Of a stretch of DNA of 64,000 nucleotides, positions 1,166 to 54,662 are shown one piece after another. Made by a program: the position numbers and the translations under genes. Within the stretch, counting starts at the first letter, position 1. Each line of letters starts with the position of its first letter. A model generated the notes under the pieces. That model was not told the DNA's origin, ran no database searches, and was given only the letters and a program-made list of their open reading frames with translations. This DNA is from Escherichia phage vB_EcoM-RPN187: the sequence record OL770074.2. One strand, 5' to 3'.

Positions 1166-1223
1166 AATTTCCTCCAAGTAGTTGATGAATGTATAATATC
1201 AAAACCCTTGGAGGAAGTAAACA

Positions 1224-1505
1224 CTATTTTTCTGAAGCGCCTGAAATATATTTTTCAAGACGTTGTTTCATTAGCGAGCCGTTCTTAGCGATTTCTTCCG
1301 GTTTATCGCACATACGCAACAAGGCTTCAAGCTTAACGATATCGCTGGTACGTTCAAATTTGCGAGTATCTATCTTACTAGCAAGTTCAGAAATACGTGC
1401 TAATAGACTTTCAGCTTCAACCAAAGCTGCGCCTAGCTTAGTTGCAAATGTGTCAGTAGCTTCGTTAAGAATAGATTCTGATAAAAATTCACTATATGTT
1501 TTCAT
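1224..1505 (-). CDS. internal-protein-like protein (ipII/ipIII position between denV and e)
   Basis: From ATG at 1505-1503: [10 protein letters not shown]|[10 protein letters not shown]..., 93 aa; ATGA overlap with lysozyme stop (1502-1504). ORF track starts 5 codons upstream at a TTG. Confidence 0.55.
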
Positions 1506-1990
1506 ATATACGCTTTCCAAGTTCCTGTTTTAAATGTTGAGATTACGCGTTTCGCGCGATTAGGTGTCTGACGATACCATTTAGATTGGGCTAGATTTAC
1601 TGCCGCTTCATCCCAACGTTTCTGTTGAAGCATACGAAGAGAATTAGTAAAACCAGCAACGCCTGCTACACCCATTTGGAAGACCATATTGACCAATGCA
1701 CATCGACGAACCGCATCTAAAGAATCATATACCGGTTTAAGTTTAGCATTACCCAAGATTCCTCGAACGGCTTTATCAACGTCTTCATTAAATAGCTTTT
1801 CGGCCTCATCAAGGGTAATTGTACCGTTGCATTTACGTCCGATCATTCTGTCAAGTTCAGCTTTAGCTACGGCTAAAGACGGGTTCTTTGTTACTAAATG
1901 ACCTATGCCAATCGTCCAAAAGCCTTCAGTGTCTTTGTATAAAGACAGTCTAAGACCTTCGTCATTACGAAGCATTTCAAATATATTCAT
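1502..1990 (-). CDS. e: lysozyme (endolysin), T4 e type
   Basis: [32 protein letters not shown]...[18 protein letters not shown]; near-identical to T4 lysozyme (memory). ATG at 1990-1988 preceded by GGAGG; ORF track starts at an upstream GTG. Confidence 0.95.
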
Positions 1991-2029
1991 AATACCTCCC
2001 ACGTTTATAGGAGGTATTTATTACTTATA
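1991..2029 (-). promoter_or_regulatory. hairpin sequestering the e ribosome-binding site, with late-promoter-like boxes
   Basis: Perfect 9-bp inverted repeat aatacctcc (1991-1999) / ggaggtatt (2010-2018); on the mRNA the 3' arm GGAGGUAUU is the SD directly before AUG. Loop contains TATAAACG and TATAAGTA lies at 2022-2029 (minus), resembling the late consensus TATAAATA. Confidence 0.6.
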
Positions 2030-2483
2030 GGAGGGTAGTGAGCACCTTATATAATGATTTGCCCATTACATATTCCCATTGAGAAGGTTTAATTAACGCG
2101 AATGCATCAAATTCAGGAATCTGTCTTCCGTCCGGGAACGTATGATAGGAATTACAAACACTGTTTCTGAATTGCTCGTGCTCTACAGGGATGGTATATA
2201 GGAACAGATGAATATTCTTATTGTCTGAGTAATGATGTTCACCTAGGTCTTTCAGGAAGGCAGGGTCATATTGTGTAAACCCAGTTTCTTCTTCGCATTC
2301 ACGAATAGCGGCTTCGATAGGAGATTCACCGGGCTCGACACGACCTTTAGGAATATCCCACCGATGAGCTAAAGAACCTTTAGGACGAGAACCAGTTACA
2401 CGCCCCATGAATAATTCTTTATCTTCGGTAAGGAAAATAATACCAGCTGATAGTTCTTTCACTTTATTTTTCTTACTCATCAT
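2025..2483 (-). CDS. nudE: Nudix hydrolase
   Basis: Nudix box-like GRVEPGESPIEAAIRECEEETGF; position next to e as T4 e.1/nudE. Start chosen at ATG with ATGA overlap to upstream stop; ORF track starts 5 codons earlier. Confidence 0.8.
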   Translation of the reverse strand: MMSKKNKVKELSAGIIFLTEDKELFMGRVTGSRPKGSLAHRWDIPKGRVEPGESPIEAAIRECEEETGFTQYDPAFLKDLGEHHYSDNKNIHLFLYTIPVEHEQFRNSVCNSYHTFPDGRQIPEFDAFALIKPSQWEYVMGKSLYKVLTTLL

Positions 2484-3992: not shown

Positions 3993-4022
3993 ACTATAAC
4001 ATAGTCCTATCATGTTGTAAAC
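3993..4022 (-). promoter_or_regulatory. T4-type early promoter embedded in a stem-loop
   Basis: Minus strand GTTTAC (4017-4022), 18 nt, TATAGT (3993-3998); 9-bp inverted repeat ataggacta/tagtcctat (3985-4010) spans the -10 region. Confidence 0.55.
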
Positions 4023-5019: not shown

Positions 5020-5271
5020 TTAAATTTCACGACATGCGATATCATATTCATCCCATAGGTCATCGTGTGAAGCCTCTACTAATGGAACGATTGTACCATT
5101 TATGTCTTCATTATAAGGGCAAATTGTACAGTGTGCATCTTCGAATCGGATGCCTTTGTGTTCAGATTTTTTATAACGCATATCGAATATCTTTGCAAAC
5201 TTTTCACGAGTAATGGTTTTAGCAACCACTTTGGTTCCAACACTTTCGTAATAAATCATTGTGGACTCCAT
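5020..5271 (-). CDS. hypothetical small protein
   Basis: ORF track 83 aa; own early promoter upstream (5288-5317); ATG verified 5271-5269. Confidence 0.45.
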   Translation of the reverse strand: MESTMIYYESVGTKVVAKTITREKFAKIFDMRYKKSEHKGIRFEDAHCTICPYNEDINGTIVPLVEASHDDLWDEYDIACREI

Positions 5272-5287
5272 TTAATTTGATAGGACT

Positions 5288-5317
5288 ACTATAACATAGC
5301 CCTATCTTGTTGTAAAC
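5288..5317 (-). promoter_or_regulatory. T4-type early promoter next to an imperfect stem-loop
   Basis: Minus strand GTTTAC (5312-5317), 18 nt, TATAGT (5288-5293); near-identical sequence to the 3993-4022 promoter. Confidence 0.55.
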
Positions 5318-6116: not shown

Positions 6117-6472
6117 TTTCTACATTCCTTAATAAAGTTTTCGATTGTTTCATTTTCACGTCTAGCTAGGAGTTCATTATAACTAATCATTTGAGAAGCG
6201 TAAACCTTTTTATTTTTCTTGTTATGGTTTATAAAATCGTAGTAAAAATAGACTACAGTACAAAATGATGCGATGGATGCAAAGGCTTGGGTATACCGTA
6301 AGTCCTGCCATTGGTCTGTGAATCCACCAGTGTTCCCTATAAATCCTAACACAACGCCGTCAATAAGAAATCCAACTAATCCAAAGGCAAATCCCATGCC
6401 AATACTCATAATAAAAATTAGAATGTTCTCACCAAGAGAAGGCCATACGGTTAAGAGTTGAGGCTTTTGCAT
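6113..6472 (-). CDS. membrane protein, C-terminal ENFIKECRK motif
   Basis: ORF track 119 aa; hydrophobic/Gly-rich segments (ILIFIMSIGMGFAFGLVGFLIDGVVLGFIG); ends ...ETIENFIKECRK. Confidence 0.5.
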   Translation of the reverse strand: MQKPQLLTVWPSLGENILIFIMSIGMGFAFGLVGFLIDGVVLGFIGNTGGFTDQWQDLRYTQAFASIASFCTVVYFYYDFINHNKKNKKVYASQMISYNELLARRENETIENFIKECRK

Positions 6473-9058: not shown

Positions 9059-9523
9059 TTATTTAATTTGTTTAGCAGACCAGATACGGTCTTTAATAAG
9101 TTTTTGGATATCTTCAACATACTCAAGGCTATGAGCGTGAGGATTATCTTTGAAGCTATGTGCTCGTGCCAGTTTCTGGCCTTCTGTTTTGATTACTAAA
9201 AGCTCTTTAAGAATTGCTTCATACTTAGAAATAATTCCTTTGGCGATATTTTTTTCTTGAGCGGCTTTAGGGTCCGCTTTTGGCGCAGGTGCTTTACCTG
9301 TAGCTTTCTGGAACAATTCACCTGATGCAGCTAGGCTTTTAAAAACTCGGCTAACAGTATTAGCATTAGTAAAACCTTCGGCTTTAAAATCTCTAATAAA
9401 ACGGAAACGTTCTTCATCAGAGGCGTCTTTGTAAGAATATTTACCTGCTCTAATTGCTGCAATCGCAGCGGCTTTTACATCTGAACTAGATTGTTCAGTC
9501 AAAAATTCAGCGTATGATTTCAT
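9059..9523 (-). CDS. internal-protein-like protein with capsid-targeting-sequence N-terminus
   Basis: ORF track 154 aa; MKSYAEFLTE|QSSSD...; Lys/Ala-rich; ATG verified 9523-9521. Confidence 0.55.
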   Translation of the reverse strand: MKSYAEFLTEQSSSDVKAAAIAAIRAGKYSYKDASDEERFRFIRDFKAEGFTNANTVSRVFKSLAASGELFQKATGKAPAPKADPKAAQEKNIAKGIISKYEAILKELLVIKTEGQKLARAHSFKDNPHAHSLEYVEDIQKLIKDRIWSAKQIK

Positions 9524-9567
9524 GTTGCTTTTCCTAAGTTAATTAACTTATCTATTTATTATTATGC

Positions 9568-9595
9568 AAAAAAGCCCCAACCTTTCGGAAGGGGC
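9568..9595 (-). terminator. rho-independent terminator closing the tRNA/stable-RNA transcription unit
   Basis: GCCCCUUCCGAAAGGUUGGGGC followed by UUUUUU on minus; near-copy of the 9026-9052 hairpin. Confidence 0.6.
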
Positions 9596-9602
9596 TATGC
9601 CT

Positions 9603-9905
9603 TGCGGCAACCTTGTCGGGGTTCCACCTGCTAAGGCAAGTGTTTGTACGAAACGCCGGGATTCGAACCCGGTTATTAAGCAGTTGACGCTACTCAATAT
9701 TTTTAAAAGGCCATATCTCGACCATATCCGAACGTTCCGTCAAAAACGCTACTCGGCTTACGGCAAAGATATTTCCTCGAATCGATAATTCTGTGCGCCG
9801 TTTCAGCTGTGATAGTAAAGAACCAGAACACAGTAAAACTGTGGGAGGAACTATACTCCAGGGAACATCAGTCCGACGACTTACCGGTAGCGACCCGGTT
9901 TCTTG
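9603..9905 (-). ncRNA. putative small stable RNA(s) downstream of tRNA-Arg, with tRNA-like T-arm
   Basis: About 300 nt with no credible ORF on the minus strand, between tRNA-Arg and a terminator. Contains a T-arm motif CCGGGUUCGAAUCCCGG (9655-9672) with possible acceptor pairing CGGAACG/CGUUUCG. T4 encodes stable RNA species at the same place (memory). Boundaries not resolved. Confidence 0.3.
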
Positions 9906-13115: not shown

Positions 13116-13850
13116 TTACCTTAAGATTGTTTCAATTTTAGAATAAAGCTCTTCTAAAGAGCCGTCGTTTGTAATAACTAAATCGCCTTCTTCAATAGGC
13201 AACCCAGCTTCTGTAATATGTTTATCAGTGGATTCCGTACCAGAGCGAACCACATGAATAACTGTAGCACCCATCGCTCTAGCGGTTTCCATTTCATGGA
13301 CTTGACGTGTATCGGTTACAACATAGTAATCGAAATCACTTCCAATATAATCCATATAGTTTAATGCAAAAAGTTTAACCCAATACATACGGTCAAATAA
13401 ATTAACGACAATATCCGTACCGAGGGCTTGCATAAGACGGCGGATTGACCATGTGTCGTTGATATTATTTATAGCTTCACGCAGGGCTTCATACGGTTTA
13501 ACATCTAGATATGAATACCCACCTTCTAATGATGATAATACTTTAACATTATTAATTGGTAAATATTGACTTTGTAAATAAATTAGCGTTTCTTCCATTA
13601 ATTCAATAACATCCAACTTATTGATATTTAATGGTGTTTCACGGTCGTATCCAACACCTTCAAAGTATTCATATTTCAACTCAGTGAATACATCAGGGTT
13701 TTCGGCATGTTTACGTCCCCAGGCTATTGCTAGAGCGTCTTTAATCGGATATGCCAATTGGTATTTTACGGATTTAAAGTTTGAATTGATGTAATCAGCA
13801 GTAGTGTCTTTACCACTACGTTTGATGCCGCTTAAAAAGATTAGCTCCAT
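13116..13850 (-). CDS. 1: deoxynucleoside monophosphate kinase
   Basis: 244 aa; P-loop GIKRSGKDT; ...RMYWVKLFALNY...HVVR...GLPI..GDLVITNDGSLEEL near-identical to T4 gp1 (memory). Confidence 0.9.
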   Translation of the reverse strand: MELIFLSGIKRSGKDTTADYINSNFKSVKYQLAYPIKDALAIAWGRKHAENPDVFTELKYEYFEGVGYDRETPLNINKLDVIELMEETLIYLQSQYLPINNVKVLSSLEGGYSYLDVKPYEALREAINNINDTWSIRRLMQALGTDIVVNLFDRMYWVKLFALNYMDYIGSDFDYYVVTDTRQVHEMETARAMGATVIHVVRSGTESTDKHITEAGLPIEEGDLVITNDGSLEELYSKIETILR

Positions 13851-13903
13851 AGGTTTTCCTCATATAATTTATGAGTGATTATAACATACGGAGCTAGAAG
13901 CGA

Positions 13904-52837: not shown

Positions 52838-53236
52838 TTACACTCTATTGCTTGACGCTAACTGAAGTTTAATTTGTTCAATATCGTCAGGGTTGTCTAC
52901 GACCGAAAATCTAATCTCTACTATAACCGTATAGTCATCATATACTGGCGTTACACTCACAGAAAGTTTGTCGATGCGTGGCTCATAGTTACGAACAGCT
53001 GCCTGGATATTACGCTCAATCGTATCGGCTGTAAGTGGTGTCATGTTCTCGAAAAGTTCGTCGACCAAATCGCATCCAAATTCAGGGTCGAAGGGGCGTG
53101 AGCCTTTTCTAGTTGTCACTATGCCAAGAAGACTATTTTTAATAGAACGAAGTCCTACAGAACGAGCAACGTCCTTGTTCCAATCCATACGCATTTCTGG
53201 GTCGATATCTGAATAAAGTTTATTGATATTAGACAT
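52838..53236 (-). CDS. 25: baseplate wedge protein gp25
   Basis: 132 aa as T4 gp25. Confidence 0.9.
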   Translation of the reverse strand: MSNINKLYSDIDPEMRMDWNKDVARSVGLRSIKNSLLGIVTTRKGSRPFDPEFGCDLVDELFENMTPLTADTIERNIQAAVRNYEPRIDKLSVSVTPVYDDYTVIVEIRFSVVDNPDDIEQIKLQLASSNRV

Positions 53237-53862
53237 TATAGTAACTCAAAGAATTCTTTGAGGCCTCGTATTGTGTGAACGTGTGACGCCCCACATTTGG
53301 GACATTTAATAGGGGTTGCCAGATAAATTGATGGCGATACTAAAAGATTTTTAATATTGATCATGTCATCTTCTGTTATAAGGCCGTAAAGGTCGTTTAT
53401 TTCTGCTTCAGTTAAATCTTCAACAGGGATGGACTCTCCATTGACAAAAACAGCCTCAATACATGAAGCAATCATTAATGCGATATTTTTATCGTCAAAT
53501 AATTTAGGTTGACGGAACTTAATTTTAATACCACTGAACGAATACCAGGGATCGGCCTGTTCATCTAATCGAGTGTGCAATAAATTCATATAGACTTGAA
53601 ATGAATGCCCACAGGAACAATTCCAGGTGTGTTCTTGATTCACTTCACCTAATGAATGTGCCCACAGATTTACCAACAATAACTCGGCTTCTTGTTTAGT
53701 CAAGTTTTTAGCGTTAGAGCAATTAGTGATAATATTGTTCACTGCTGATTCAATAGTACCTGTAGCCCGCGCACCTATGAGTCCTAGATATTCTTTTAAA
53801 GTAAAGGCTCTACAATTCACTTCTTTATCGCCTAAACGTACGGTAAACGTATATTTGTACAT
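53236..53862 (-). CDS. 26: baseplate hub protein gp26
   Basis: 208 aa as T4 gp26. Confidence 0.9.
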   Translation of the reverse strand: MYKYTFTVRLGDKEVNCRAFTLKEYLGLIGARATGTIESAVNNIITNCSNAKNLTKQEAELLLVNLWAHSLGEVNQEHTWNCSCGHSFQVYMNLLHTRLDEQADPWYSFSGIKIKFRQPKLFDDKNIALMIASCIEAVFVNGESIPVEDLTEAEINDLYGLITEDDMINIKNLLVSPSIYLATPIKCPKCGASHVHTIRGLKEFFELL

Positions 53863-53880: not shown

Positions 53881-53892
53881 TATTTATAAATA
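53881..53892. promoter_or_regulatory. palindromic divergent late promoters for genes 26 and 51
   Basis: tatttataaata: TATAAATA on plus (53885-53892) for gene 51 and on minus (53881-53888) for gene 26. Confidence 0.55.
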
Positions 53893-53909: not shown

Positions 53910-54662
53910 ATGGCTAATATAATTCGTTGTAAATTACCGGATGGTGTTCATCGTTTTAAGCCGTTCACTGTGGCGGATTATAGAGACTTTTTACTAGTTA
54001 GAAATGATATCGAACATCGTTCGCCACAAGAACAAAAAGAAATAATTGCCGATCTGATTGATGATTATTTTGGCGAGTACCCTAAAACATGGCAACCATT
54101 TATATTCCTGCAAGTTTTTGCAGGCTCTATAGGCAAAACAAAAGTTCCCGTTATTTTCACTTGCCCTAAATGCTCTAAAGAAAAAACTGCACCATTTGAA
54201 ATATATCAAAAAGAACTAGTCGAACCTGAACTTGATGTTGCTGGTATAAAAATACGTTTTTCTTTCCCTGAAAAGTTTTATGACAATAAAGCATTAATGA
54301 TAAGTGAAAACATAAAAGAAATATATTATAATGATGAATGGTACCCATGGAATGATTTGACTGAAGAGAACCAAATCCAAGTAATAGAAGCAATAGACAT
54401 TGACTCGCTCGAGAAGGTTATTGCTTCTATGAACCCTATTAATTTGACCCTTAGATTAGGTTGTTGTGAACGTCATGTTAAAACATATACTGATATCTTA
54501 GAGGTTTTTAAATTGTTAGTTAACCCTGATGAGATTTTTACATTCTATCAGATAAACCATTCACTAGTAAAGAGTCAATACACATTGGATTCTATTATGC
54601 AAATGATTCCTGTTGAACGTGGTATTGCTTTAACATTAGTAGAAAAGGACCATAAAAAATGA
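53910..54662 (+). CDS. 51: baseplate hub assembly catalyst gp51
   Basis: 250 aa (T4 249); Cys pairs CPKC...CCERH. Confidence 0.9.

Follow-up and report, generated by a model that had tools for sequence, protein, structure and literature searches.

The primary account of the translational control of gene e in phage T4 is the paper by McPheeters et al. (Nucleic Acids Res 14:5813, 1986). As described in the passage on gene e in the review of Uzan and Miller 2010 (PMC3014915), long early T4 e transcripts form an inhibitory structure, transcripts from late promoters lack its 5' part, lysozyme synthesis from the structured transcripts is about 100-fold lower, and the structure is reported as demonstrated. 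In the same passage, two late promoters are given as the source of those late e transcripts that are translated, and similar e leaders are predicted for close relatives (Fig. 5A), with a late promoter of the T4 type lying in each case where the 5' strand is encoded. For the upstream of the two T4 promoters, 5' transcript ends have reportedly been mapped. In the supplement of a T4 dRNA-seq preprint, the positions where the e starts would be expected (67004-67018) have no entry, and a literature search for transcript-start data from RB69 or Mosigvirus returned nothing relevant. The locus considered here is the e leader in a stretch of 64,000 nucleotides from Escherichia phage vB_EcoM-RPN187 (sequence record OL770074.2), hereafter the window. 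The reading preferred for it, with a probability of roughly 0.78, is an RB69-type version of the T4 gene e translational switch, opened most likely from the late-promoter-like box AATAAATA.

The window is an RB69-type Mosigvirus. A 1.1-kb region of it matches 154 phage records at 95-99% identity, all of them Mosigvirus-type T-even phages, TU01, APCEc01 and JS09-like phages included, and in the e leader it agrees with RB69 at every base. The e product matches the PHROG endolysin (E = 2e-28), is annotated as lysozyme in relatives and is 82% identical to T4 e, with the N-terminus MNIFEMLR common to both; the product of nudE, directly upstream and co-oriented, matches the PHROG nudix entry (E = 3e-74). 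The nudE-e gene order is identical in T4 and RB69 and belongs to a conserved nudE-e-internal-protein context. In the sense of the mRNA, the junction of the two genes reads CTA-TAA-G-TAATAAATACCTCCTATAAACGTGGGAGGTATT-ATG (Table 1).

Two further observations concern the annotation of this neighborhood. An extra 237-bp ORF, RB69ORF130c, lies between nudE and an e.2-like membrane-protein gene in RB69 (66171-66407), TU01 and many close relatives (567-803 in record L001); it is missing from the window (about 2480-2500), as it is from SQ17 and KMB38, and the 1.1-kb region consequently matches in two pieces. Likewise, the RB69 RefSeq record NC_004928 (L137; 7674 versus 7689) begins e at an internal Met6 (65673), giving 157 aa. 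The T4-homologous AUG of RB69 e is at 65688, directly 3' of the SD hairpin, and the Met6 start is, judging from the sequence, probably a start-codon mis-annotation. For annotation purposes, the start of e in RB69-type phages is the T4-homologous AUG that follows the hairpin, not the RefSeq Met6.

Table 1. Coordinates of the features at and upstream of the e leader in the window
Feature	Coordinates	Strand	Basis and remarks
Gene e, endolysin / T4-type lysozyme, 162 aa, N-terminus MNIFEMLR	1502..1990	minus	ORF + homology
e start codon AUG (ATG 1990..1988), adjoins hairpin 3' arm	1988..1990	minus	homologous to T4 e start
Hairpin 3' arm GGAGGUAUU, Shine-Dalgarno GGAGG (1999..1995) + spacer	1991..1999	minus	inverted repeat + RNA fold
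Inter-arm segment UAUAAACGUG	2000..2009	minus	RNA fold; contains TATAAACG
Loop of the RNA stem, AAAC	2006..2003	minus
Hairpin 5' arm (anti-SD) AAUACCUCC	2010..2018	minus	inverted repeat + RNA fold
Box TATAAACG	2009..2002	minus	mismatches at -7 and -6; predicted +1 ~1996; degenerate counterpart of the T4 loop promoter
Box AATAAATA	2022..2015	minus	mismatch: A at -13; predicted +1 2009/2008
Box TATAAGTA	2029..2022	minus	mismatch: G at -8; predicted +1 2016/2015; overlaps nudE stop
nudE stop codon TAA	2027..2025	minus
nudE (e.1), Nudix hydrolase, co-oriented, directly upstream of e	2025..2483	minus	ORF + PHROG
Nearest strong sigma-70-type (early-like) promoter match, TTTACA-17-TATAGT with TG	3993..4021	minus	consensus match
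Further sigma-70-type match	5110-5137	minus	consensus scan
Further sigma-70-type match, TG-extended -10	5288-5316	minus	consensus scan
Further sigma-70-type match	6176-6204	minus	consensus scan

The initial annotation of this DNA had described a perfect 9-bp hairpin at 1991-2029 over the lysozyme ribosome-binding site, with GGAGG in its 3' arm just before the AUG and TATAAGTA just upstream. A repeat finder and RNA folding bear out these coordinates, on the minus strand, which had been left unstated, and TATAAGTA lies where it had been placed. The arms, AATACCTCC and GGAGGTATT, pair perfectly with 10 nt between them, and the 3' arm ends directly before the ATG. In RNA the stem extends to 12 bp by three added pairs (U.G, A-U and U.G) formed by the outer 3+3 nt of the inter-arm segment, leaving a loop of 4 nt. 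The minimum free energy (MFE) of the hairpin is -16.3 kcal/mol (z = -5.0), none of 200 dinucleotide shuffles folds as well, and the hairpin is still dominant when folded in a 101-nt context. The modelled probability that the SD is unpaired is close to zero on RNA that carries the upstream arm, and on such transcripts a stable local hairpin is predicted to hide the SD and AUG of e.

A 10-nt direct repeat, CCTCCTATAA, is also found here (2034..2025 and 2014..2005, minus strand), so that nudE ends in another copy of the anti-SD, which could pair with the e SD in an alternative 8-bp pairing. A role as a back-up anti-SD was considered and rejected: the upstream copy lies within nudE coding sequence and reads CCATCC in the closest IMG/VR relatives (L003 and L004), and because it is not conserved there it is probably incidental.

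What is unusual about the e hairpin is its position, exactly on the SD and AUG, and its strength. The window contains 9 perfect short-loop hairpins of at least 9 bp, where first-order Markov simulations give 3.2 +/- 1.9, so that a single such hairpin anywhere is unremarkable. Across both strands (about 64,000 windows) the 38-nt MFE at e ranks in the top 0.12%, and when the sequence upstream of the SD is shuffled, a stem this long through the SD core arises in just 0.05% of cases. When occlusion is measured as the free energy needed to make positions -12 to +3 single-stranded, e is the costliest of 81 non-overlapping candidate gene starts: it needs 16.2 kcal/mol, where the median is 5.0 (sd 3.3).

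Several other starts in the window are occluded as well. The second most occluded, at 16.0 kcal/mol, belongs to ORF 13116-13850, whose leader (13851-13900, minus strand; GTTATAATCACTCATAAATTATATGAGGAAAACCTATG) holds its SD in a CTCATA...TATGAG hairpin just after a TATAAT-like -10. In the denV leader (1166-1225, minus strand, ATG at 1165) the SD is buried by perfect pairing of TCCTCCAAG with CTTGGAGGA across a loop of about 26 nt (-19.8 kcal/mol, z = -2.6; opening cost 15.4 kcal/mol). The 5' arm of this hairpin lies inside the spacer of the denV sigma-70-type promoter, TTTACT-17-TATTAT, so that denV's own transcripts would be predicted to start in the loop with the ribosome-binding site free; on late read-through from e/ip the site would be closed, in a mirror image of the e design. 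T4 denV shares the architecture with different bases (TCTCCTGTAG...CTACAGGAGA), a case of covariation. Similarly, the segment 53863-53909, which separates two divergent baseplate-hub genes (53236-53862, minus; 53910-54662, plus), carries two overlapping palindromic TATAAATA boxes (53881-53892) between ACTCCTTT and AAAGGAGT. By this palindromic layout the SD of each hub gene complements that of the other and the late promoter lies between anti-SD arm and SD; the two ribosome-binding sites cost 10.2 and 10.9 kcal/mol to open on RNA with the far arm.

A switch of the T4 kind presupposes transcripts that reach e from upstream. Same-strand sigma-70-type matches, the nearest strong one a candidate source of read-through RNA, are available there (Table 1), a terminator scan reports no terminator-like site between nudE and e, and early or middle read-through into e is, from the sequence, plausible; transcripts crossing nudE carry the full hairpin. 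Further, with 6 nt between the nudE stop codon and the 5' arm, a ribosome that terminates there should reach the helix but hardly enter it, and any opening of the stem through translational coupling with nudE is probably small.

The late signal of this phage is clearly the perfect octamer TATAAATA, which occurs 20 times in the window against 8.0 expected, a count that 0 of 100 shuffles reach. The sense strand carries no perfect TATAAATA in the 9 kb upstream of e. The late-promoter-like boxes that had been noticed at the hairpin do exist as three near-matches, all of them imperfect relative to TATAAATA, and none of their octamers is clearly enriched: AATAAATA occurs 9 times in the window against 10.6 expected, TATAAGTA once in 64 kb against 3.9, and TATAAACG, mildly over-represented, 7 times against 3.4. 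Within 1.6 kb the only boxes with one mismatch are the overlapping AATAAATA and TATAAGTA at the hairpin and, given that endolysin must be made late, one of these two almost certainly serves. Transcription starts were predicted by setting the octamer at -13 to -6, following PMC1524935.

As to which of the two it is, the nature of their mismatches is informative. Conservation of the T at -13 is poor in RB69 and other T4-like phages, where A and T are both common (PMC1524935), and of the 50 T4 late promoters on one list, 32 match the consensus perfectly and 9 carry A at -13 (PMC2988020); A at -13, the deviation of AATAAATA, is the commonest natural late-promoter variant. In the window itself AATAAATA also lies 28-44 nt upstream of late genes, those for the tail sheath stabiliser and the prohead-protease inhibitor. 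A cryo-EM structure shows gp55 flipping bases -12, -9 and -8 into protein pockets, with the -8 adenine hydrogen-bonded (PMC7892883); AATAAATA alters none of these three bases and TATAAGTA alters the one at -8, which sits in a deep pocket. The flanks speak for TATAAGTA, which like the consensus late promoters has AT-rich sequence after it (ATAAATAC). AATAAATA is followed by CCTCC, five positions at which 11 of 11 consensus sites in the window are AT-rich, and it accordingly scores poorly in flank context. A position weight matrix from the window consequently places TATAAGTA somewhat above AATAAATA on flanks alone; trained on the 11 consensus late sites of the window, all perfect, it cannot separate two cores with single mismatches. 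The upstream e late promoter of T4 has CCTTC where the window has CCTCC, and the matrix is weak evidence against AATAAATA, offset by this T4 precedent. A hidden Markov model search by Nolan et al. lists 31 predicted late promoters in RB69, none of them near e (65,700).

Another copy of AATAAATA, at 9560..9553 (minus strand), lies 30 nt upstream of a 154-aa ORF (9523..9059; PHROG 2280, function unassigned) and is, by sequence, another candidate A(-13) late promoter. It is preceded by the strongest hairpin of the window (9573-9610, -21.5 kcal/mol; region 9553-9610, minus strand), which folding suggests is probably a bidirectional terminator.

The energetic consequence of each candidate start was also computed. 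RNAs beginning at each predicted +1 were folded and the cost of exposing the stretch from SD to AUG was measured. Read-through RNA costs 14.6-17.4 kcal/mol to open. A start from AATAAATA, which lies downstream of the whole 9-nt 5' arm, lowers this to 4.8 kcal/mol, about the gene median of the window. The initial annotation had taken a start from TATAAGTA, inside the 5' arm, to leave the ribosome-binding site free. In the computed folds this does not hold up: such a start trims just 2-3 nt of the arm, (U)ACCUCCUAU can still pair, a 9-10-bp hairpin stays, and for that reason the site would not be freed, the cost being 14.2 or 13.4 kcal/mol (for starts at 2016 and 2015, respectively) against 14.6-15.6 for read-through. 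T4, put through the same computation as a positive control, gives 15.5 kcal/mol for early RNA, 5.0 for the start at the upstream late promoter and 1.5 for the loop promoter, and the matched computation for the window gives 17.4 for early RNA and 4.8 for AATAAATA, which thus behaves like the upstream late promoter of T4.

That TATAAGTA is nevertheless the operative late promoter, and that a start inside the 5' arm suffices, is therefore unlikely. The box does have a single mismatch to TATAAATA, single deviations from consensus do occur among the listed T4 late promoters (PMC2988020), and its flank score is the better one. Against it stand the structure left intact by its start, the mismatch in the gp55 pocket, its single copy in the window, and its distribution, confined to the RB69 clade, where it lies over the nudE stop (CTA TAA G), and missing from the more distant leaders that keep the hairpin. 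A gp55-type late promoter whose predicted +1 falls downstream of the 5' arm is found, at the level of sequence, in AATAAATA, unlike TATAAGTA, and AATAAATA, the positional homologue of the upstream e late promoter of T4, is most likely the operative late promoter of e.

In RB69-type phages, both T4 e late promoters have drifted (T to A at -13; TA to CG at -7/-6), and a new near-consensus box, TATAAGTA, has come to lie 7 nt upstream of AATAAATA. It is possible in principle, if quite improbable, that both overlapping boxes fire and yield two classes of late e mRNA, or that lysozyme output relies on an unusually weak variant promoter. If both boxes fire, the mRNA starting at about 2016 would be closed and that starting at about 2009 open, and the ratio of box usage, not promoter strength alone, would set the dose or timing of lysozyme.

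Under the preferred reading, with AATAAATA as the box in use, early and middle transcripts would start upstream, run through nudE into e and carry both arms of the 9-12-bp hairpin. The hairpin would bury GGAGG and end at the AUG so that 30S subunits could not bind and no lysozyme would be made prematurely, provided that translation follows accessibility. After the onset of DNA replication, RNA polymerase with gp55 would initiate at a late promoter embedded in the hairpin region, most likely AATAAATA, with +1 at about 2009/2008, and the late mRNA would begin in the loop, lacking the 5' arm, with an open ribosome-binding site. The initial annotation had invoked temporal control of the T4 e type; as to kind this stands, on orthology, synteny, identity with RB69, 22 related leaders and the T4 literature, and it is the choice of promoter that had to be changed.

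The comparison across relatives rests on two IMG/VR scans, one by lysozyme protein and one by alignment, which together with T4 and RB69 gave 39 distinct leaders; 22 distinct T-even-type leaders were aligned with MAFFT and 19 distinct leaders entered the comparison of opening costs. The box ATAAATAC, which covers the start of the 5' arm, does not vary among the 22; at -13 they have A, T or G, and the flanks diverge. Every one of the 19 distinct T-even leaders examined has an NATAAATA box, and with a start at its predicted +1 the opening cost drops from 10-19 to 1-8 kcal/mol. RNAalifold returned no structure on the MAFFT alignment of the 22 leaders, in which the ACCUCC and AC-UCC registers had been put out of phase, and pairs were consequently counted with an SD-anchored script. 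By this count, which is fitted to the structure, the four pairs of the CUCC:GGAG core form in 22 of 22 leaders; substitutions within the core include U.G pairs, two at each of two positions, and one change from U-A to C-G, in L023 (AAUACCCCU...GGGGGUAUU), a compensatory CCCC:GGGG. Outside the core the lineages diverge. In the T4/Mosigvirus group the stem grows outward to the AUG (AAUA:UAUU), and in a second lineage it grows inward (UAUC:GAUA or UAUA:UAUA), AAUAC being unpaired there yet invariant. An invariant ATAAATAC together with pairing maintained through different bases is the pattern expected if a promoter and an SD-occluding structure have both been kept. In most lineages, further, the stem beats shuffled controls. 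The e arrangement is, in these sequences, conserved in relatives, with pairing kept despite sequence change.

Five IMG/VR contigs of about 17-35 kb (L108, L111, L114, L115 and L120) encode more distant homologues of T4 lysozyme, 37-48% identical. In their predicted hairpins an SD of GAGG is paired with CCTC upstream of it; the 5' arm contains CATAAATA, as in CCTCTCATAAATAAG...TATTTATGAGG, and these may be independent cases of endolysin RBS sequestration.

The remaining explanations fare worse still. The loop box TATAAACG could be the operative promoter, as the positional homologue of the perfect TATAAATA in the T4 loop. Its start would give the most open mRNA of all, at 0.9 kcal/mol, and the octamer is the one with a mild excess in the window. 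Its two deviations fall in a core that is invariant in the upstream box of 22 of 22 leaders, most lineages have no box in the loop at all, and a start at 1996, inside the SD, would truncate GGAGG to GG and so lose most of it. These points make TATAAACG a very unlikely choice. Whether late lysozyme might instead come from long transcripts, opened by a trans-acting factor or by an endonuclease cutting between the arms, with no internal promoter, is a question raised by the absence of a consensus late promoter call at e in the survey of Nolan et al. and by the caution that 5' ends from primer extension cannot tell initiation from processing (PMC2988020). The invariance of ATAAATAC at a fixed distance from the stem in divergent leaders, those with AAUAC unpaired included, is what would be expected of a promoter and not of a cleavage site, and the relevant passage of PMC3014915 credits the two late promoters with the translated T4 transcripts; processing of this kind is highly improbable. 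Least credible is a hairpin with no role in e translation, whether an intrinsic terminator or stabiliser of nudE mRNA or a chance inverted repeat: the stem does sit just after the nudE stop codon, and chance alone would put about 3 perfect 9-bp short-loop hairpins into 64 kb, but the SD itself forms the 3' arm, which reaches to the AUG, sequestration is kept through different pairings in 22 leaders, and the homologous T4 structure is, in that passage, reported as demonstrated, with lysozyme synthesis about 100-fold lower. The terminator reading was also rejected on the absence of a U-run after the stem and of the hairpin from the terminator scan.

Given that this control is published for T4 and already noted for relatives, the finding is an ordinary and known one. 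The mechanism has been textbook temporal translational control since 1986, and its discovery value here is small. Its implications are more practical. The e late promoter of RB69-type phages is to be sought at the A(-13) box AATAAATA, which the survey based on hidden Markov models missed. More broadly, choosing by eye the promoter-like box that lies nearest can lead to a start at which the inhibitory structure persists.

Compared with T4 directly, the window has the orthologous gene in the same nudE-e synteny, the same SD GGAGGUAUU followed by AUG, and a 5' arm at the same position; the T4 leader reads TTTTATAAATACCTTCTATAAATACTTAGGAGGTATTATG, with AAUACCUUCUA as its 5' arm. Likewise, a late promoter box overlaps the start of the 5' arm at equal distance, and the computed opening energies of early and late RNAs are nearly identical. 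The differences lie in the boxes and in the details of the stem. In T4 the upstream box, over the start of the 5' arm, and the loop box are both perfect TATAAATA, whereas in the window the upstream box is AATAAATA, with A at -13, the loop box has decayed to TATAAACG, and an extra TATAAGTA lies over the nudE stop. The window pairs CCUCC with GGAGG perfectly where T4 has one U.G pair, and 10 nt separate the 9-nt arms where the corresponding T4 segment has 12. From the leaders of T4-related phages, as that passage of PMC3014915 presents them, the window leader does not differ in substance. Beyond gene e, the same review describes soc, gene 49 and I-TevI in the td intron of T4, as well as mobE of Aeh1, as genes whose ribosome-binding sites are hidden on upstream transcripts and free on those from proximal late promoters; these are other genes with other sequences, and they stand to the e leader as analogues, not homologues.
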